NCBI GenBank assembly: GCA_963746175.1
Contig: CAVVAH010000008.1
Span: 800,377-864,376, forward strand
From: an uncultured Actinomycetota bacterium
GTDB lineage: Bacteria > Actinomycetota > Actinomycetes > JACCUZ01
Direction: 5' to 3'
DNA: 64,000 nt
The translations under genes were made by a program, and so were the position numbers. This document shows, one piece after another, positions 2,726 to 18,243 of this stretch. The notes below the pieces were generated by a model that was not told where the DNA came from, ran no database searches, and worked only from the letters and a program-made list of their open reading frames with translations. Every line of letters begins with the position of its first letter. Position 1 is the first letter of the stretch.

Positions 2726-3982
2726 GTGACGACTCGCGCCGACGGATCCCGCCGGTCGCGCAACCCGATGGCCGGCCTGCCACGCGAGGTGGCCGTCCTC
2801 ACCGCAGTCGCCTTCGCCGTCGCCGTCGGCTTCGGCGTCGTCGCCCCCGCGATCCCCGAGTACGCCCGCGACTTCGGCGTCGGGCGCACGGCCGCCGGCG
2901 CGGTGATCTCGGCGTTCGCGTTCATGCGGCTGGTGTCCGCCCTCGGCAGCGGCCGCCTGGTCAACCGGTTCGGCGAGCGACTGGTGCTCGCCACCGGCAT
3001 CGGGATCGTGGCGGTGAGCAGCGCCCTGGCCGGTCTGGCCCAGACGTACACCCAGCTCCTTCTGCTGCGCGGTGTCGGCGGCGTCGGGTCCGCGATGTTC
3101 ACCGTCTCGGCCATCTCGCTGCTGCTGCGCGTCGTCGACGCCGACCAGCGCGGCAAGGCCACCGGCATGTGGCAGTCCGGCTTCCTCGTCGGCGCGATCG
3201 CCGGCCCCGCGATCGGGGGGCCGCTCACGGCCATCTCGTTGCGCGCGCCGTTCTTCGTCTACGCCGGGACGCTCGCAGTCGCCGGCGGAATCGGGCTGCT
3301 CTTCCTCACCCGCGCAGCGCTGCACGAGGCCGAGACGTCGACCACCGACGCCCGGGCCGTGACTCTGCCGCAGGCCTTACGGGTGTCGGGCTACCGGGCG
3401 GCGCTGGTGTCCAACCTCGGCAACGGGTGGGCCCTGTTCGGCGTACGCAGCTCGCTGATCCCGCTGTTCGTCACCGAAGGCATCGGCGCATCGGCCACCT
3501 GGACCGGCATCGGGTTCTTCGTGTCCGCGGCGGCGCAGGGCGGACTGCTGCTCGTCGCCGGCTCGTTCACCGACCGCGTCGGCCGGCGACCGGCGCTGCT
3601 CATCGGCGGTGCGGCCGCCACCGCCGCCATGCTGCTCGTCGCTGTGAGCGACTCACTCGCCGTCTACACCGTGGCGATGGCGCTGTTCGGCGCCGGTTCG
3701 GCCTTCCTGTCCGTGGCGCCGAGCGCGATCGTCGGCGACGTCGTGCACGGCAAGGGCGGCACCGTCGTGGCGGCGTTCCAGATGTCGGCCGACCTGGGAG
3801 CCGTCGTGGGGCCGCTGGCGGCGGGCTGGCTGGCCGACGACTACTCCTTCGGAGCGGCCTTCGGGGTCACCGCGGCCGTCCTCGCCGCCGGTCTGGTCAC
3901 GGCGTTCTTCTCCGCCGAGACCCGGCACCGCACCGACCCCGCAGACCGCAACCCGGACCCGTCGCCCGGCACATCCGGCTGA
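2726..3982 (+). CDS. MFS transporter (12-TMS type)
   Basis: Hydrophobic helices throughout, and the MFS motif region GRLVNRFGERLVL. Alternative start at 2768 (MAGLP). Confidence 0.75.
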   Translation: MTTRADGSRRSRNPMAGLPREVAVLTAVAFAVAVGFGVVAPAIPEYARDFGVGRTAAGAVISAFAFMRLVSALGSGRLVNRFGERLVLATGIGIVAVSSALAGLAQTYTQLLLLRGVGGVGSAMFTVSAISLLLRVVDADQRGKATGMWQSGFLVGAIAGPAIGGPLTAISLRAPFFVYAGTLAVAGGIGLLFLTRAALHEAETSTTDARAVTLPQALRVSGYRAALVSNLGNGWALFGVRSSLIPLFVTEGIGASATWTGIGFFVSAAAQGGLLLVAGSFTDRVGRRPALLIGGAAATAAMLLVAVSDSLAVYTVAMALFGAGSAFLSVAPSAIVGDVVHGKGGTVVAAFQMSADLGAVVGPLAAGWLADDYSFGAAFGVTAAVLAAGLVTAFFSAETRHRTDPADRNPDPSPGTSG

Positions 3983-12367: not shown

Positions 12368-12602
12368 GGCGAGCCTGCCGTGCACGCACGGTGACGACGG
12401 CACACGCTGCGTCGACCCGTTGGTGGCGATGCCCGAACTGCCCGGATAACTCCAACGAATCGCGCGAGGTCGCGCGACCGGACGCCTTGTGGTGGCGCTG
12501 CGGGCGGGAGTACGAACGAGTGGGCTCACCACGGCCACCAACGGGGCGACCAACGGGGGTCCTGCGGCGACGTCATCGCCGCCCGTAGGAGGGGGACTGC
12601 CT

Positions 12603-14210
12603 GTGAGACGCATCGTTGCCCTGGGAGCGGTCGGCGCGCTGGCCGCCAGCTCGTTCCTGGTCACACCGTCGGTCGACGCCACCACCCAGGCCCGCGTCGA
12701 GAAGTCCACCATCTCCTGGGGCCGCTGCGACGACCCCTTCCTGCGCGAGCTCGGCGCACAGTGCTCCACGCTCGAGGTCCCCGTCGCCTACGCCCGCCCC
12801 GAGCTCGGCACGCTGACCCTGGCCCTTTCCCGGCTGCGGCACACGGCGCCGAGGAAGGACTACAAGGGCGTCCTGCTGGCCAACCCGGGCGGGCCGGGCG
12901 GCTCCGGCCTGACGCTGGCCCCCGTCCTGGCGGTGTTCGCGATGCCGGACGACATCCGCGCGGCGTACGACTGGATCGGCTTCGACCCGCGCGGCGTGGG
13001 CTCCAGCGAGCCCCGGCTGTCCTGCGACCCCGACTACTTCGTCGGCCCGCGTCCCGACTACGACATCGGGCTGACGCCCTCGGCCGAGAGCGAGTGGGTT
13101 GCCCGGTCGCAGGGCTACGCCGCCGACTGCGCGGCCGCTGGAGGCGAGCTGCTCAATCACCTGCGCACCACCGACAACGTCCGCGACATGAACCTGATCC
13201 GGGCCGCGCTGGGCGCACCGAAGCTGAACTTCTACGGCTTCTCCTACGGCACCTACCTAGCGCAGGTCTACGCCACGAAGTTCCCGCGGCGGGTCGGCCG
13301 GATGGTTCTCGACGCCAACGTCAACCCGACAAGGGTCTGGTACGACGCGAACATCGACCAGGACCACGCGTTCGAGATCGTGATCGGCAGGTTCTTCGCC
13401 TGGGTCGCCGACCACGACGACATCTACGACCTGGGCACGTCGGCCGCCGAGGTCGAGGCGGCCTACTACGACGCGCGGGCAAAGCTGACCGCGAACCCGG
13501 AGGGCCCGCTCGGCCCGTCCGAGCTGACCGACGCCTTCCTGCCGGCCGGCTACGTCCAGGTCCTCTGGCCGGACGAGGCACAGGCGCTCTCAGACCTGGT
13601 GCATGGCGACCCGTCCGGCGCGACCGCGTTCTACGAGGCTTTCGACGGCCCAGGTGACGACAACGGGTTCGCGATGTACCTCGCCACCGTCTGCACCGAC
13701 GGCCGGTGGAAGCCCTATCCCGCCTTCCGCGCCGAGAACGTCGCGGTCGACGAGCAGGCGCCGTTCTTCTCGTGGGGCAACTTCTGGTTCAACGCCCCGT
13801 GCGTCTACTGGGCCGGTCGGTCGCACCACCCGGTGAACGTCAACGGGAGCGCCGCGCCGCCGCTGCTGCTCATCGGCGAGACCCTCGACGCCGCGACTCC
13901 GCTGCCGGGCAGCTTCGAGGTGCGGCGGCGGTTCCCACGGTCGGCGTTGGTCGAGGTGGACGGCGGGACCACCCACGCGAACTCGCTGTCGGGAAACCCG
14001 TGCGTCGACGAGCCGATCTTCACCTACCTGCGCACCGGGGTCGTCCCGCCGCGGGTGGCGGGCGACGGCCCGGACGTCCTCTGCCCGGCCCCGCCGCTGC
14101 CCGAGCCGGCGACGGCGACGGCGTCCTCGACCTCGGGGGGAGGCAACCAGCGCCACGGGCTGACTCCGATGTGGTCCACGCAGCTCTCAGCCGGCTTCAG
14201 CCGGCCCTGA
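12603..14210 (+). CDS. secreted S33-family tripeptidyl aminopeptidase-like alpha/beta hydrolase
   Basis: GTG start after SD AGGAGGGGGA. Signal peptide. GFSYGT nucleophile motif. About 535 aa. Confidence 0.7.
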   Translation: MRRIVALGAVGALAASSFLVTPSVDATTQARVEKSTISWGRCDDPFLRELGAQCSTLEVPVAYARPELGTLTLALSRLRHTAPRKDYKGVLLANPGGPGGSGLTLAPVLAVFAMPDDIRAAYDWIGFDPRGVGSSEPRLSCDPDYFVGPRPDYDIGLTPSAESEWVARSQGYAADCAAAGGELLNHLRTTDNVRDMNLIRAALGAPKLNFYGFSYGTYLAQVYATKFPRRVGRMVLDANVNPTRVWYDANIDQDHAFEIVIGRFFAWVADHDDIYDLGTSAAEVEAAYYDARAKLTANPEGPLGPSELTDAFLPAGYVQVLWPDEAQALSDLVHGDPSGATAFYEAFDGPGDDNGFAMYLATVCTDGRWKPYPAFRAENVAVDEQAPFFSWGNFWFNAPCVYWAGRSHHPVNVNGSAAPPLLLIGETLDAATPLPGSFEVRRRFPRSALVEVDGGTTHANSLSGNPCVDEPIFTYLRTGVVPPRVAGDGPDVLCPAPPLPEPATATASSTSGGGNQRHGLTPMWSTQLSAGFSRP

Positions 14211-14216
14211 CCGCCG

Positions 14217-14278
14217 GTACGGAGCTGCATGATCACCGCGACTCTGCTCGTCGGTGATCATGCAGCTCCGTACCCGTC
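14217..14278. terminator. perfect 24-bp palindrome cggtacggagctgcatgatcaccg-N13-cggtgatcatgcagctccgtaccg between convergent genes
   Basis: Seen directly. The core tgatcacc...ggtgatcatgcagc recurs at 29553-29590. Confidence 0.6.
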
Positions 14279-15110
14279 AGCCGACCTCGGTGACGTCCTC
14301 GACGGTGAACTCCGGCGGGTGCGACTCCCGGGTGGCGTGGCAGGTGAGCAGACCCGGCTCCGGCCGGGCACCGGCCCGGACCGTGACGATGAGGTTCCGC
14401 GGCTGCCGCCGCAGCCGCACCTGGAACCTGCCGTCACCGAGGTGCAGCGTGCCGGCCGGTGCGAGCGAGTCGACCGCGAGGTCGCCGAGCTCGCGCCGGA
14501 CGTGCGCGACCGCGGCCTGCGCGGCCGGTGCCGTCGTCGACCGGCCGCGCAGCAGGTCGGGCAGCACCTCGCCGCGCTCGTGCGCGGCCACCAGCTCGGG
14601 CACCCGGTCGGTGCCGACCCGCCCGTAGTAGAGGCCGTGCGGCATCGCCACGACGTTCGCCGCGAACCGGTCGCCTCCGACGTGCGAGCACTCCCAGGCC
14701 GCACCGGGCCGGTGCCGCGCGAGCGCCAGCGCCACCGGCCGGCCCTCGACCGCGCAGCAGGCGTCGTGCCGGCCGTGGGTGCAGACCAGGTAGAACGGCT
14801 CGTACGACACCGTGCCGGCGCTGCCGTCGAGCGGCAGCGTCCGCAGCTCCTCGTCCGCGCCGAACGTGCCCCACGACGACACCTCGCGCCCGGGCCGGGA
14901 GCTGACGACCGCCCAGCTGCGCCGCTCCGGCACCGGCTGCCGGCCGGGCCGACGGATCAGCAGGACCCGCAGACCCTGCCGGATCGCGCGGCGGGACACC
15001 TCCAGCCCGACCGCTGTGTCGAGCCGGGACGACGTGAGCGCCTGGCGGCCCCAGCCACCGGGCTGCTCGACGAGCAGGTACCCCGCTGCGGGTGCGGCGG
15101 TGCCGGCCAT
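14277..15110 (-). CDS. sucrase/ferredoxin-like (thioredoxin-like [2Fe-2S] ferredoxin family) protein
   Basis: CTHGRHDACCA cysteine motif characteristic of the Suc_Fer-like family. 277 aa, counted from the stop. Confidence 0.65.
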   Translation of the reverse strand: MAGTAAPAAGYLLVEQPGGWGRQALTSSRLDTAVGLEVSRRAIRQGLRVLLIRRPGRQPVPERRSWAVVSSRPGREVSSWGTFGADEELRTLPLDGSAGTVSYEPFYLVCTHGRHDACCAVEGRPVALALARHRPGAAWECSHVGGDRFAANVVAMPHGLYYGRVGTDRVPELVAAHERGEVLPDLLRGRSTTAPAAQAAVAHVRRELGDLAVDSLAPAGTLHLGDGRFQVRLRRQPRNLIVTVRAGARPEPGLLTCHATRESHPPEFTVEDVTEVG

Positions 15111-15169
15111 CGGGTCGCCGCGGAGGCGGGCAGCGACCGCGCACCGGGGCGCAGCGACGACCGGCTCGC

Positions 15170-16429
15170 TCAACGCTCCTCGACCAGCACGACGGCCTCG
15201 CGCACCAGGCGCCGGGCGAGCACCATGGCGTCGCCCGGGTCGAGGCCCGGCAGGTCCGCCACCCGCAGCGACTCGCCGTCGAGCAGCGAGCGGACGGCCT
15301 TCGCCGTCGCCGCGGGCAGCCGCAGCGTCCGGTCGTGCAGCCGCAGCACGATCTCGTCGCCGTCCATGGCCAGCGTGTGCCGGAGGTGGCGGCGGGCGCG
15401 GAGCACCGACTCGGCCGCGAGCGTCGACAGTGCCGCGGCCTGTGCCAACGGCGCGACCGGCTCCGGCCGGTTGCTGCCGACGAGCGAGCCACCCAGCCGC
15501 TCGGACACCTGGGCGGCGGTGACCGCCGGCAGCCGGTCCAGGAGCACGGCGAGGGTGGCCTCCACGTCGGCCTGCACCGCAGCGGGGTCGCCGAGGTCGA
15601 CACCCATCGGCAGCGACGTCCGCAGCGCCGGGTCGTCGGCCACCAGGTCGAGCAGCGCCTCGAGCACGTGGTGCCGGGTGACAGGGTGGACGCCGACGGT
15701 CAGGTGGCACGAGACGTCGCCGAGCGCCTCGGCGGCGTGCAGGTAGCCTCGCGGCAGGTAGAGGGCGTCGCCCGGCCGCAGCACGGTGTCGACGACCGGC
15801 TCCTCCGCGGCGCGCGCCTCGACCGCGGCGCGGCGCTGCTCCCACGGCTGGTCGCGCAGCGGCGCCGGCAGCACCGGTTCGTGGATCCGCCAGCGCTTCT
15901 CGCCCGCGACCTGCAGGACGAAGACGTCGTGCACGTCGTAGTGCGCCGAGAAGCCCTGTGACGAGCTCGGCGTGACGTAGGCGTTGACCTGCACCGGGTG
16001 GCCCAGCTCGGTCGCCAGCTCGCCGGCGAAGTCGGTGATCGGACCCCAGGTGCGGTGCAGACCCTGGAAGACGACGGTGTGCCCGTCGGCGAAGAGCTCC
16101 AGGACCCGGTCATCGGCCACCTGGTCGGCGACCTGCGCGCCGGTGCCGCCACCGCGGGTGTAGCGCGCGGCCGGCGTGACGACACCGTCCTTGGCGATCC
16201 GCAGGAACGGCGTACGCAGGCCGCGCCGCGACAGCAGCTCGTCGACGGCGGCCAGCGAGAAGAGGTCGTCGAAGCCGGCCGGTCCGTCGCCCGCCAGCTG
16301 CTCGCGCGTCGAGAGCAGCGGCTGCCGTGACCAGACGCGCGCGGCGAAGTCGTCGCGGTCGACGGCCGCGCAGCGCCGCAGGGCGGGCCAGGAGATGGAG
16401 TCTCCCGGCCCGCCCGCGGTGTCGCTCAT
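15170..16429 (-). CDS. JmjC / cupin-4 family Fe(II)-2OG oxygenase (ribosomal oxygenase RoxA/YcfD-like)
   Basis: HYDVHDVFVLQVAGEKRWRIH (HxD...H facial triad region). Start at MSDTAGG. The long upstream ORF extension overlaps a repeat and was rejected. Confidence 0.65.
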   Translation of the reverse strand: MSDTAGGPGDSISWPALRRCAAVDRDDFAARVWSRQPLLSTREQLAGDGPAGFDDLFSLAAVDELLSRRGLRTPFLRIAKDGVVTPAARYTRGGGTGAQVADQVADDRVLELFADGHTVVFQGLHRTWGPITDFAGELATELGHPVQVNAYVTPSSSQGFSAHYDVHDVFVLQVAGEKRWRIHEPVLPAPLRDQPWEQRRAAVEARAAEEPVVDTVLRPGDALYLPRGYLHAAEALGDVSCHLTVGVHPVTRHHVLEALLDLVADDPALRTSLPMGVDLGDPAAVQADVEATLAVLLDRLPAVTAAQVSERLGGSLVGSNRPEPVAPLAQAAALSTLAAESVLRARRHLRHTLAMDGDEIVLRLHDRTLRLPAATAKAVRSLLDGESLRVADLPGLDPGDAMVLARRLVREAVVLVEER

Positions 16430-16448
16430 GGTGCTCAGAGCAGGGACC

Positions 16449-16694
16449 TCAGGCGCCGCTGTCCGCGCCGCCGTCGCCACCACCGTCAGCGGCCCCGTCG
16501 GCACCGCCGTCGTGCTCACCGGGCGTGCCGGACGCGCCGCCGTCGGCCGGACCTTCGGCACCGCCGTCCGCGCCGCCGTCCGCGCCACCGTCGGCTCCGC
16601 CGTCCGCACCGCCGTCGCCGCCGCTGCCGGCTCCGCCGTCCGCGGGCCCGTGCTCCTGCGGGCTTGTGGTCATGTCGTCGTCGTCGAGCGCCAT
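16449..16694 (-). CDS. small (81 aa) acidic intrinsically disordered (DGGA)n-repeat protein
   Basis: Perfect SD GAGGGAGGA 5 nt before the ATG. Sequence MALDDDDMTTSPQEHGPADGG(A/S)G...(DGGA)x5... The stop lies 19 nt before the cupin start. The DNA is a tandem 12-nt repeat. Confidence 0.5.
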   Translation of the reverse strand: MALDDDDMTTSPQEHGPADGGAGSGGDGGADGGADGGADGGADGGAEGPADGGASGTPGEHDGGADGAADGGGDGGADSGA

Positions 16695-16797
16695 ACGTGT
16701 CCTCCCTCTCGGTCGAACTCCGGCGCCCGCTGTCCGGGGCGCCCGTCCCCGTCCTACCCGACGCGGGAAGCGGAAACCAGCGGCAGTCCGCCTCGCC

Positions 16798-18243
16798 TCA
16801 GCCGGCGGCGAGGTGCCCGAGCAGGTCCTGCCGGGTCAGGACACCGGCCGGCTTGCCGTCCTCGTGCACGAGCACCGCGTCGGACTTCGCGAGCGCAGCC
16901 GTCGCCGCCGACACCGGCTCCCCCGAGCCGACGATCGGCAGCGGCGCCGACATGTGCCGCTCCAGCGCGTCGGCGAGGTGCGCGTCACCGGAGAACAGCA
17001 GGTCGAGCAGCTCCTTCTCGCTGACCGAGCCGACGACCTCCCCCGCCGTCACCGGGGGCTCGGCCTTGACGACCGGCATCTGCGACACGCTGTACTCACG
17101 GAGGATGTCGATGGCCTCGCGGACCGTCTCGTACGGGTGCACGTGCACGAGCGTGGGCACCTCGGCGCCCTTGCTGGCGAGCACGTCGCCGACGGTGGTG
17201 CCCGAGGTGGAGTCGGCGTCGAGGAAGCCGTAGTCGGCCATCCAGTCGTCGTTGAAGATCTTGCCGAGGTAGCCGCGGCCGCTGTCCGGCAGCAGCACCA
17301 CCACCACGTCGTCCGCGGTGAGCCGTTCCGCGACCCGCAGCGCGGCGACGACCGCCATGCCGCAGGAGCCGCCGACGAGCAGACCCTCCTCGCGGGCCAG
17401 CCGCCGGGTCATGTGGAAGGAGTCGCGGTCGGACACGGCCACGATCTCGTCGGTCACGGTCCGGTCGTACGCCGACGGCCAGAAGTCCTCGCCGACTCCC
17501 TCGACGAGGTACGGCCGGCCGGTGCCGCCGGAGTAGACCGAGCCCTCCGGGTCGGCACCGACGATCTGCACCTTCCCGTCGCTGACCTCCTTGAGGTAGC
17601 GGCCGGTGCCACTGATGGTGCCGCCGGTGCCGACGCCGGTGACGAAGTGCGTGACGCGACCGTCGGTCTGCGTCCAGATCTCCGGCCCGGTCGTCTCGTA
17701 GTGCGACCGCGGGTTGTTCGGGTTGGAGTACTGGTCCGGCTTCCAGGCGCCGTCGATCTCGCGCACCAGCCGGTCGCTGACCGAGTAGTACGACCGCGGG
17801 TCCTCCGGCGACACGGCCGTGGGGCACACCTCGACGCGGGCGCCGTACGCCGTGAGCACGTTGATCTTGTCCTGGCTCACCTTGTCGGGCAGCACGAAGA
17901 CGCACTGGTAGCCGCGCTGCTGCGCGACCAGCGCGAGCCCGACGCCGGTGTTGCCGGAGGTCGGCTCGACGATGGTGCCGCCGGGCCGGAGCTCGCCGGA
18001 CTCCTCGGCGGCGTCGACCATCCGCACGGCGATCCGGTCCTTCACGGACCCGCCCGGGTTGAGGTACTCGACCTTCGCGAGCACGGTCGCCGGGACGTCC
18101 CGGGCGACGGACTTCAGCCTGACCAGCGGGGTGTTGCCGACCAGGTCGACCATGGACTCGTAGACCTGCATGGGCATGAGCGTAGAGCGCGGCTCGTGAC
18201 TCGCTCTCGAACGGGGAGCGTCGTGTGGCGCCCGATCCGTCAA
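16798..18243 (-). CDS. cbs: cystathionine beta-synthase (PLP cysteine-synthase fold plus tandem CBS domains)
   Basis: PLP-lysine motif SVKDR, GNTG, GTGGT, and C-terminal CBS pair. Alternative start at MPMQVY (18177). Confidence 0.85.
   Translation of the reverse strand: MTDRAPHDAPRSRASHEPRSTLMPMQVYESMVDLVGNTPLVRLKSVARDVPATVLAKVEYLNPGGSVKDRIAVRMVDAAEESGELRPGGTIVEPTSGNTGVGLALVAQQRGYQCVFVLPDKVSQDKINVLTAYGARVEVCPTAVSPEDPRSYYSVSDRLVREIDGAWKPDQYSNPNNPRSHYETTGPEIWTQTDGRVTHFVTGVGTGGTISGTGRYLKEVSDGKVQIVGADPEGSVYSGGTGRPYLVEGVGEDFWPSAYDRTVTDEIVAVSDRDSFHMTRRLAREEGLLVGGSCGMAVVAALRVAERLTADDVVVVLLPDSGRGYLGKIFNDDWMADYGFLDADSTSGTTVGDVLASKGAEVPTLVHVHPYETVREAIDILREYSVSQMPVVKAEPPVTAGEVVGSVSEKELLDLLFSGDAHLADALERHMSAPLPIVGSGEPVSAATAALAKSDAVLVHEDGKPAGVLTRQDLLGHLAAG

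Follow-up and report, generated by a model that had tools for sequence, protein, structure and literature searches.

Organization of the locus

We analyzed a window of 64,000 nucleotides (nt) from the genome of an uncultured Actinomycetota bacterium (contig CAVVAH010000008.1 of assembly GCA_963746175.1, positions 800,377 to 864,376), whose G+C content is 72%. The minus strand of the region 14277-16797 contains three genes, identified from the list of open reading frames (ORFs) and from Pfam matches: (i) a small ORF encoding an acidic repeat protein, (ii) a gene encoding a JmjC-type Fe(II)/2-oxoglutarate (2OG) oxygenase, also referred to below as the cupin, and (iii) a gene encoding a Suc_Fer-like protein. 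All three genes are real and together constitute a conserved operon. The features listed for this region in an initial annotation of the window were found on the minus strand as described, save for four corrections.

The small protein and the JmjC enzyme appear to form a previously undescribed module, i.e. a putative JmjC protein hydroxylase with a co-encoded partner, which is widespread in Actinomycetota. Full-text searches of the literature yielded no description of the pair or of the trio, and this neighborhood is not among the bacterial MINA/NO66-like neighborhoods listed in the searched passages of the survey of Iyer et al. (2010). The elements of the module, in the direction of transcription, are given below.

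16700-16708, minus strand: Shine-Dalgarno (SD) sequence GAGGGAGGA, read directly from the sequence, 5 nt ahead of the ATG of the small ORF
16449-16694, minus strand: gene of the small acidic repeat protein, from the ORF list (81 amino acids (aa), 6.8 kDa)
16452-16644, minus strand: imperfect period-12 DNA repeat coding for (DGGA)n (Tandem Repeats Finder: 16 copies, 66% matches)
16436-16451, minus strand: putative coupling junction, in which the stop codon TGA of the small ORF (16449-16451) overlaps GAGG (16447-16450) and an in-frame CTG (16436-16438) lies three codons before the ATG of the oxygenase gene
15170-16429, minus strand: gene of the JmjC (cupin-4/ribosomal-oxygenase type) Fe(II)/2OG oxygenase (419 aa if counted from the ATG, 422 aa if translation begins with the CTG at 16438)
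14277-15173, minus strand: gene of the Suc_Fer-like protein of the thioredoxin-like ferredoxin (TLF) family (PF06999; 298 aa, basic, with an isoelectric point (pI) of 9.3)

Conservation of the gene cluster in Actinomycetota

The distribution of the genes was surveyed by a genome scan seeded with the cupin alignment, from which the best 80 of at least 599 matched stretches were used (54-81% cupin identity). These loci include metagenome-assembled genomes (MAGs) labeled Sporichthyaceae, Jatrophihabitans, Geodermatophilaceae and Motilibacteraceae, as well as cultured Cryptosporangium, Actinomycetospora, Actinokineospora and Umezawaea. The nearest relatives of the window locus are uncultured Actinomycetota MAGs, some of them labeled Sporichthyaceae, and a public soil-metagenome contig encodes a cupin protein (P0001) and a small protein that are both identical to those of the window.

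Wherever at least 300 nt were available upstream of the cupin gene (75 loci with 54-100% cupin identity, among them one duplicate and the contig of the window itself), a small acidic ORF was found directly 5′ of the JmjC gene, across several families, and each of these 75 small proteins contains the motif DGGADG. Of the 80 loci, 76 have a Suc_Fer-like gene 3′ of the cupin gene. In three of the remaining four the contig stops there, which leaves L071 as the only locus truly without the gene (76/77). Beyond the cupin and Suc_Fer-like genes, no ORF family was present in more than 21 of the 80 loci. The upstream neighbor varies by lineage, the cystathionine-beta-synthase-type gene of the window being replaced, among others, by a gene for a UbiE/MenG-like methyltransferase (read from the translated ORF). 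Since the flanking genes change between lineages, the unit travels as a block.

The reverse approach, starting from the small protein, revealed 54 homologues in a database search and 102 clusters (at 50% identity) in a profile search. In all seven readable genomic contexts that were reached from these homologues the JmjC gene is located directly downstream of the small ORF, while the adjacency of the Suc_Fer-like gene differs as follows.

Streptomyces: small protein and JmjC; Suc_Fer-like gene adjacent
Aeromicrobium: small protein and JmjC; Suc_Fer-like gene adjacent
Amycolatopsis: small protein and JmjC; Suc_Fer-like gene adjacent
MAG L092: small protein and JmjC; Suc_Fer-like gene adjacent
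Salinispora: small protein and JmjC; Suc_Fer-like gene not adjacent
MAG L093: small protein and JmjC; Suc_Fer-like gene not adjacent
Metagenome contig L087, whose small protein resembles Ornithinibacter homologues: small protein and JmjC; Suc_Fer-like gene not adjacent

Because the Suc_Fer-like gene is adjacent in only four of these seven distant contexts, the comparison indicates that the conserved core is the pair of small protein and JmjC enzyme, with the Suc_Fer-like protein as a frequent third member. The conservation of the neighborhood, proposed in the initial annotation as a check, was thus strongly confirmed in both directions. Its three-component module holds for the close relatives, but has to be reduced to a two-gene core in view of the distant ones. 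Loci lacking the small ORF or the ferredoxin partner had been named as counter-evidence: the small ORF was missing from none of the 75 loci with sufficient upstream DNA, whereas the Suc_Fer-like gene is missing beside the pair in Salinispora and two other lineages.

Several observations concern the neighbors of the module. In Streptomyces sp. (GCA_053612185.1; L085:1042-6305) the trio is located directly 3′, on the same strand, of genes encoding paralogues of the ribosomal proteins S14, L28, L33, L31 and S18 and a CobW_C GTPase, which is the arrangement of Zur-controlled clusters of zinc-independent ribosomal-protein paralogues. This setting may be a coincidence, or it may connect a homologue of the ribosomal oxygenases with alternative ribosomes or zinc limitation; reading of the 345-nt gap at this locus revealed no obvious AT-rich, Zur-box-like palindrome. 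In Salinispora (L086:3157-5526), where the Suc_Fer-like gene is missing, a gene for a DksA/TraR zinc-finger protein lies just 5′ of the pair. A large catalase gene is transcribed divergently from the trio in Amycolatopsis (L090:1759-6388), and at the locus of the window an MsrA (PMSR) gene is located about 2 kb off.

The small acidic repeat protein

The small protein has the sequence MALDDDDMTTSPQEHGPADGGAGSGGDGGADGGADGGADGGADGGAEGPADGGASGTPGEHDGGADGAADGGGDGGADSGA. It contains 30 Gly (37%), 16 Asp and 15 Ala residues, with no Lys or Arg, and its net charge is about -19, in agreement with its original description as an 81-aa, strongly acidic, low-complexity product. The N-terminal MALDDDDMTT is followed by EHGPADGGAG, the (DGGA)n stretch, EGPADGGASGTPGEHDGGADG and a DGGA tail. 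The protein is predicted to be disordered: AlphaFold2 modeling with an alignment of 36 sequences gave a predicted local distance difference test score (pLDDT) of 54 and a predicted template modeling score of 0.14, with a helical turn at residues 5-8 as the sole secondary structure. The protein is not represented by any Pfam, NCBIfam or PADLOC model. The name "BatC protein", attached to some homologues in UniRef/NCBI records (P0132, P0143), was taken as a low-complexity annotation artefact; it has probably spread by low-complexity similarity and carries no functional information.

In an alignment of distant members, the N-terminus of the family reads M-(A/S)-L-(N/D)-D-D-D-(M/I)-T-T. In the ancestral form it is followed by at least two units of approximately 22 aa, each composed of E-G-P-A-D-x-G-A, 2-4 residues, and P-G-x-(H/Q/S/T)-D-G-G-A-D-G-G-A. 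The clade of the window has retained one HGPADGGAG and one EGPADGGA…PGEHDGGADG unit, with DGGA expanded between them, and the alignment identifies the (DGGA)n stretch as a lineage-specific expansion of the older unit. The copy number of the repeat differs among relatives, whose small ORFs span 56-155 aa.

We also considered whether the small ORF might not be a functional protein gene at all, but repeat junk, a regulatory upstream ORF (uORF), or an extension of the cupin or a frameshift fusion with it. Within the repeat, a frame plot of G+C content at third codon positions (GC3) is of no help, as it cannot separate the frames there: the cupin frame is open up to a GTG at 16609, with a GC3 of 0.90 versus 0.83 for the small ORF. 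In one relative a gene caller lengthened the cupin to 476 aa, the copy number of the repeat is variable, and two MAGs have repeats with apparent frameshifts. Against these points stands the pattern of substitution. When 17 distinct orthologues are compared over the 22 N-terminal codons that can be aligned, at least 4, 4 and 29 changes are required at codon positions 1, 2 and 3, respectively. The 9 DGGA units of the window are encoded by 5 distinct 12-mers differing at third codon positions, and the 766 units of all loci by 60 different 12-mers (using GAC/GAT, GGC/GGT/GGG/GGA and GCC/GCG/GCT/GCA), while the +1 frame of the same DNA gives 61 different, unconserved peptides. The offset between the frames of the small ORF and the cupin takes the values 0, 1 and 2 among relatives, which excludes a conserved frameshift fusion; an N-terminal extension of the cupin was rejected on the same grounds. 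The motifs of the protein are kept in Sporichthyaceae-like MAGs as well as in Streptomyces, Salinispora and Amycolatopsis. This also distinguishes it from a regulatory uORF or leader peptide, in which only the position and a short stalling motif would be conserved. Finally, the SD, correctly described as perfect, is strong and conserved, an SD-like purine run preceding the small ORF in nearly all related loci. It is therefore very improbable that the ORF is non-functional, and this alternative is largely refuted.

The third-position changes, the synonymous 12-mers and the variable frame offset together point to purifying selection acting on the amino acid sequence encoded in the frame of the small ORF, and not on the nucleotides. 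The PPSAPPSAPPS run of the opposite strand, from which constraint at the nucleotide level had been deduced, is a by-product of this. All frames of both strands are open and GC-rich in a GAC-GGC-GGC-GCG repeat; the PPSA frame and the extension of the cupin frame to GTG 16609 are open because the repeat holds no stop codons, and neither shows conservation as a protein. Length-variable junk in close relatives had likewise been named as counter-evidence: the length of the repeat does vary, yet the protein-level selection and the maintained motifs speak against junk.

Longer gene calls for the cupin are alternative-frame or frameshift artefacts. In two MAGs (L011:3730-4191 and L043:3543-3953) the small ORF is apparently frameshifted within the repeat into a "TAAR/VPMV" frame; these may be genuine pseudogenes, or errors of long-read assembly in the period-12 repeat. 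Frameshift read-throughs of a similar kind account for several database "proteins" of 240-765 aa, and the profile search returned seven more frameshifted gene calls that run from the small protein into the cupin.

The JmjC oxygenase

The oxygenase matches the Pfam families JmjC_2 (4.9e-29) and Cupin_8 (1.7e-09), and has more than 6,000 homologues at E ≤ 1e-10; no NCBIfam or PADLOC family matched it. Its matches in a sequence search of the PDB include NO66 (1e-21), MINA53 (5e-19) and YcfD (1e-7). The AlphaFold2 model (pLDDT 78.5) aligned over its full length to the same three proteins (approximately 420-475 columns, E 1e-25 to 1e-17). The TM-score was only about 0.46, probably due to domain orientation, and the model fits an enzyme composed of three domains, i.e. 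JmjC, helical dimerization and C-terminal winged-helix.

The HxD…H triad (H163, D165 and H231) is invariant in 16 homologues and aligns to H340, D342 and H405 of NO66. Other invariant residues are K178 (in GEKRW), which aligns to K355 of NO66 (in GRKLW) and in both proteins is located 15 residues past the first His, as well as H242-L-T244 and R227 (in LPRGY), which align to H417-L-T419 and the PRG of NO66. According to a published survey, an HxT motif together with an Arg between strands 6 and 7 marks the bacterial versions that are closest to eukaryotic MINA/NO66 (PMC2938197). In NO66/MINA53, the pocket for the substrate His is formed by Tyr328/Tyr167 and Ser421/Ser257 (PMC9994133); the equivalent of Tyr328 in the window protein, Y151, is invariant, and the position of Ser421 holds an invariant Gly (G246).

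NO66 and MINA53 are ribosomal histidyl C3-hydroxylases and YcfD is an arginyl hydroxylase (PMC9994133). All characterized enzymes among the matches hydroxylate protein residues (NO66 and MINA53 His, YcfD and JMJD5 Arg, and also FIH; PMC9994133, PMC5862942). The classes of residues targeted by JmjC enzymes are listed in PMC11575548.

The Suc_Fer-like protein

The match of the third protein to PF06999 (72 bits versus a cut-off of 34.9; 9e-20) confirmed its earlier assignment to the Suc_Fer-like family. Its start codon had been placed at an ATG 59 nt after the cupin stop. The residues R10, C11, R18 and D20, encoded upstream of this ATG, are at least 90% conserved, and a 4-nt overlap of the cupin stop and the Suc_Fer-like start occurs in 59 of 75 loci; because of these two features, the start was corrected to TTG 15173, which overlaps the cupin TGA (TTGA) and is most likely the genuine one.

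TLF proteins carry the cluster motif CX8C-Xn-HX3H, with bis-histidinyl ligation (PMC8482512). In the window protein the first half (C131-X8-C140) is kept, and the second reads H164-X3-D168, with an Asp that is invariant in 75 sequences. Conservation is 97% or higher at C11, C131, H133, H136, C139, C140, H164, D168 and C278, and 87% at C162. Judging from these residues, the protein belongs to the family but is not a bis-His protein of the Apd1 type. The HX3D motif and the extra Cys residues near the termini (C11 and C278) suggest a different ligation of the cluster or an additional redox-active disulfide. A PDB sequence search with this protein detected no solved structure, and NCBIfam/PADLOC gave just one non-significant ferredoxin match. 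We know of no characterized bacterial member of the family.

Signals for expression of the operon

Cross-locus comparison of the upstream regions revealed a promoter-like site approximately 60 nt 5′ of the small ORF.

16754-16777, minus strand: SigB/SigF-type promoter-like site, with a -35 element GTTTCC (16772-16777), a 12-nt spacer and a -10 element GGGTAG (16754-16759)

The pattern GTTT-N13-18-GGGTA has a single match on either strand of the 64-kb window (GTTT-N14-GGGTA, 16755-16777), with 0.13 expected. Of 78 upstream regions, 48 have GGGTA at 48-110 nt ahead of the start codon, versus 2.7% of control windows, and 27 have G[GT]TT-N13-18-GGGTA, versus about 0 in the control; 13 relatives share GGTAGGACG without change. 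Other -10-like motifs, e.g. TAGGGT or TAGCGT, are found in about 40% of the loci surveyed. The window site fits the Mycobacterium smegmatis SigF consensus, GTTT-N14-19-GGGTA (PMC4694148), resembles SCO1089p, a mapped promoter of a SigB homologue of Streptomyces coelicolor (GTTTCC-N13-GGGTAT; PMC8346170), and also fits GTTTnn-N12-15-GGGTAn of S. coelicolor and Bacillus subtilis. The report on the M. smegmatis SigF regulon mentions no JmjC or cupin gene (PMC4694148). Judging from these similarities, the operon is probably transcribed from a general-stress promoter of the SigB/SigF type.

Two further observations concern the region between this site and the small ORF. In one MAG (L026) a tandem repeat of CCGCACCATTTCGAT (approximately 4 copies), located about 20-95 nt 5′ of the small ORF (start at 3764), replaces the promoter-like region. 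Many loci have a GC-rich hairpin between GGGTAG and the SD (in the window GGCGCCC…GGGCGCC, 16715-16750), whose stems differ among relatives. RNAalifold analysis of 13 sequences revealed no conserved structure of the 5′ untranslated region (-2.2 kcal/mol, no covariation), although the alignment was possibly poor.

At the junction of the first two genes, the ATG of the cupin lies 19 nt past the stop codon of the small ORF, as described previously, although the protein may start at the CTG located 8 nt past GAGG. An arrangement of TGAGG followed 7-16 nt on by an in-frame CTG (CTGA) recurs in the clade of the window (L002-L029), and in most of 21 relatives there is no ATG, GTG or TTG between the stop codon of the small ORF and the conserved PALRRC. 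Across loci, this stop codon overlaps the cupin start or is situated within about 20 nt of it. The arrangement suggests coupled translation of the cupin, which may begin at the CTG through termination-reinitiation. The small ORF and the cupin share a frame in 12 of 21 close relatives, parted by one stop codon, and occasional read-through may produce a fusion.

Flanking genes and the 3′ end of the operon

The trio is bordered by the following features.

16798-18243: cystathionine-beta-synthase-type gene (PALP and CBS domains), on one side of the trio
12489-14210: TAP-like alpha/beta-hydrolase gene, on the other side, convergent with the trio
14216-14238 and 14252-14274, strandless: perfect inverted repeat with 23-bp arms and a 13-nt loop, between the convergent Suc_Fer-like and hydrolase genes

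The inverted repeat had been described as a perfect 24-bp palindromic terminator. Its perfect symmetry was confirmed, but the arms are 23 bp long, and a scan for consensus promoters and T-tract terminators gave nothing, leaving the hairpin (14216-14274) uncalled, with no T-tract or U-tract. The predicted RNA fold of this segment is very stable (-61.5 kcal/mol, z = -9.4), and the hairpin is probably a bidirectional terminator without a U-tract, common to the Suc_Fer-like and hydrolase genes. Matches of the palindrome (14205-14286) to the Rfam family mir-228, an animal microRNA family, were found on both strands below threshold (32.5 and 29 bits versus a gathering score of 45); they were rejected as an artefact, because the palindrome is a long perfect hairpin.

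Proposed function of the module

Our preferred interpretation, which remains tentative and which we regard as rather finely balanced, is that the locus encodes a NO66/MINA53-type hydroxylase and its dedicated, disordered, polyanionic substrate or partner in a coupled stress operon. Under stress, a sigma factor would drive transcription of the three genes as one mRNA, and the small protein and the oxygenase would be made together through coupled translation. The oxygenase would recognize the small protein, perhaps via the conserved N-terminal L-D-D-D-D-M-T-T, and, consuming O2 and 2OG, would place hydroxyl groups on side chains within its invariant DGGADG units, the likeliest target being C3 of Asp, or the His of PGxHDGGADG where it is present. 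The most likely part of the Suc_Fer-like protein (CX8C…HX3D) would be to provide electrons that maintain the Fe(II) of the oxygenase.

This interpretation is based on (i) the strict adjacency and coupling of the two genes, (ii) the disordered partner with an invariant motif, (iii) the membership of the enzyme in a protein-hydroxylating family and (iv) the precedents of CzlI and BipG (see below). The predicted disorder of the small protein would suit the threading of a substrate into the active site. What we infer from the sequences is that the small protein serves as the substrate, which residue is modified, what the ferredoxin-like protein does, and what the physiological effect would be.

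A number of observations weigh against a substrate role. The residue preceding DGGADG varies (H, Q, S, T, R or G), and His, although common in this position, is missing from 25 of the 75 small proteins, 14 of which contain neither His nor an aromatic residue. His, the target of the closest relatives of the enzyme, is thereby ruled out as a universal site of hydroxylation; a single universally modified residue would have to be Asp or the backbone, in which case modification of His can be only an addition specific to certain lineages. To our knowledge, hydroxylation of Asp is not known in the NO66/MINA53/YcfD clade. The position equivalent to Ser421 in the substrate pocket is occupied by an invariant Gly (G246), and the cupin is itself acidic (pI 5.5), with no obvious global charge complementarity to a partner of charge -19. 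Natural fusions of the two proteins were found neither among 120 cupin homologues nor among the 102 small-protein clusters. The Suc_Fer-like protein, for its part, lacks the second cluster-binding His and is not encoded beside the pair in three of the seven distant contexts. Moreover, the characterized NO66, MINA53 and YcfD members all act on ribosomal proteins, and the true substrate could thus be ribosomal (PMC9994133).

The last point leads to a different reading, according to which the small protein is a partner of the enzyme but not its substrate. It would be a stress-induced disordered polyanion (a protectant, a divalent-metal buffer or a donor of Fe(II)), or a pseudosubstrate, regulator or adaptor, while the oxygenase would modify a ribosomal or other cellular protein. 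A SigB/SigF-type promoter would suit a general-stress protein, and sigma-B-dependent repeat proteins, such as GsiB of B. subtilis, are of the general-stress type. The predicted disorder, the richness in Gly and Asp and the lack of a universally conserved His fit this reading as well, as do the stress- or ribosome-related neighbors, namely zinc-free ribosomal-protein paralogues and CobW (Streptomyces), a DksA/TraR-type protein (Salinispora), catalase (Amycolatopsis) and MsrA (window). However, strict adjacency and coupling to one enzyme amid changing neighbors is more typical of an enzyme-substrate pair or an obligate complex. Specific recognition is further suggested by the invariance of DGGADG and by the conservation of the N-terminal motif, and the grand average of hydropathy (GRAVY) of the small protein is above that of a hydrophilin (see below). 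We regard a non-substrate role as possible, but as a weaker candidate than the preferred interpretation.

The locus might also be read as a minimal cluster for a ribosomally made and post-translationally modified peptide (RiPP), in which repeated cores are hydroxylated, cleaved and released as a metal chelator or signaling peptide rich in beta-hydroxy-Asp. Siderophores are known to use beta-hydroxy-Asp as an Fe(III) ligand. The layout resembles that of a precursor, in that the conserved N-terminus is leader-like and the repeated units after it are core-like, and a short gene (56-155 aa) lies directly 5′ of the JmjC gene in all 75 loci; furthermore, JmjC hydroxylases adjoin precursor genes in actinobacterial RiPP clusters (PMC11575548, PMC12707348). 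Nevertheless, no protease, transporter or tailoring gene is conserved, as no other family exceeds 21 of the 80 loci; the small protein has no signal peptide and no recognizable cleavage motif between its units, whose number and spacing vary freely; and the oxygenase is of the full three-domain ribosomal-oxygenase type, unlike the YxbC-like CzlI. We therefore consider a RiPP cluster improbable.

The preferred interpretation may be extended to a stress-controlled system in which a NO66-like hydroxylase places multiple beta-hydroxy-Asp residues on a disordered repeat protein, a non-canonical (Cys/His/Asp) Fe-S protein keeps the enzyme reduced, and the product serves as a novel type of intracellular metal-binding protein or oxygen/metabolite sensor. 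We put this forward as a speculative proposal, which is more likely to be wrong in some part than to hold as a whole. If true, this would be the first case of a bacterial homologue of the ribosomal oxygenases whose substrate is co-encoded and not ribosomal. The human ribosomal oxygenases have numerous bacterial relatives, of which only the YcfD type has a known substrate, and a clade in which a small partner gene is always present provides a candidate enzyme-substrate pair open to direct testing. Should the small protein be the substrate, the range of JmjC protein hydroxylation would come to include an acidic, disordered protein of the repeat type, the bacterial Suc_Fer-like family would be placed in a functional setting, and the system would be a new member of the actinobacterial SigB/SigF-type stress responses. 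The small-protein family is often missed or mis-called by gene finders and has no Pfam or NCBIfam model, and its definition would improve annotation.

Comparison with known systems

The small protein differs from two types of proteins with which it might be compared. The RTX motif of calcium-binding repeats is a nonapeptide, GGxGxDxUx, with a hydrophobic position. The repeats of the small protein have a period of 4 aa (DGGA) or approximately 22 aa, with no hydrophobic position, and no beta structure was predicted by AlphaFold2. Hydrophilins are defined by a Gly content above 6% and a mean hydropathy below -1. Compared with hydrophilins and other late embryogenesis abundant (LEA)-like proteins, the small protein is far above the Gly limit (37%), but its GRAVY is -0.81, and the family (median -0.72, minimum -0.94) remains above -1.

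For the Suc_Fer-like protein, a functional analogy is offered by XylT-type ferredoxins. In the xyl operon of the TOL plasmid, this co-encoded [2Fe-2S] protein reduces Fe(III) to Fe(II) in an inactivated dioxygenase. By this analogy, the Suc_Fer-like protein might supply the electrons that keep or restore the Fe(II) of the oxygenase, a role that we consider conceivable, though not probable. The likeness is limited to reactivation, as XylT is a plant-type ferredoxin serving an extradiol dioxygenase, whereas the window protein has a thioredoxin-like fold and would serve a JmjC enzyme. With the TLF proteins Apd1 and Aim32 it shares the Pfam family (above the gathering score) and the conserved CX8C half of the motif. 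It differs from them in HX3D and in the additional conserved C11, C139, C162 and C278, and its gene is a bacterial one with translational coupling to that of a JmjC oxygenase.

FIH, a JmjC hydroxylase acting on Asn, Asp and His, is the precedent for a JmjC enzyme that hydroxylates Asp at C3. This JmjC-only enzyme was found among the fold matches of the window oxygenase, but its match is far weaker (E about 1e-9 versus 1e-25 for NO66/MINA53), and it is devoid of the dimerization and winged-helix domains.

The proposed logic, a JmjC enzyme encoded beside a small ribosomal peptide that it modifies, is that of CzlI of the curacozole cluster, encoded next to czlA (PMC11575548), and of BipG of the biphenomycin cluster (PMC12707348), both of which hydroxylate the co-encoded small peptide. 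These clusters also contain heterocyclases, radical SAM or MNIO enzymes, proteases and transporters, while nothing else is conserved in the module of the window. CzlI is YxbC-like and not NO66-like, and the precursors of CzlI and BipG are not acidic repeat proteins.

The closest relatives of the oxygenase are NO66, MINA53 and YcfD, which gave the best sequence and full-length fold matches, with the same triad, the same 2OG-binding Lys, the HxT motif and Arg, and the equivalent of Tyr328. The known members act on basic ribosomal proteins and have no dedicated, co-encoded small partner. The clade of the window, in contrast, has Gly in place of Ser421, and its members invariably come with a polyanionic repeat protein and in most cases with a ferredoxin-like protein as well.

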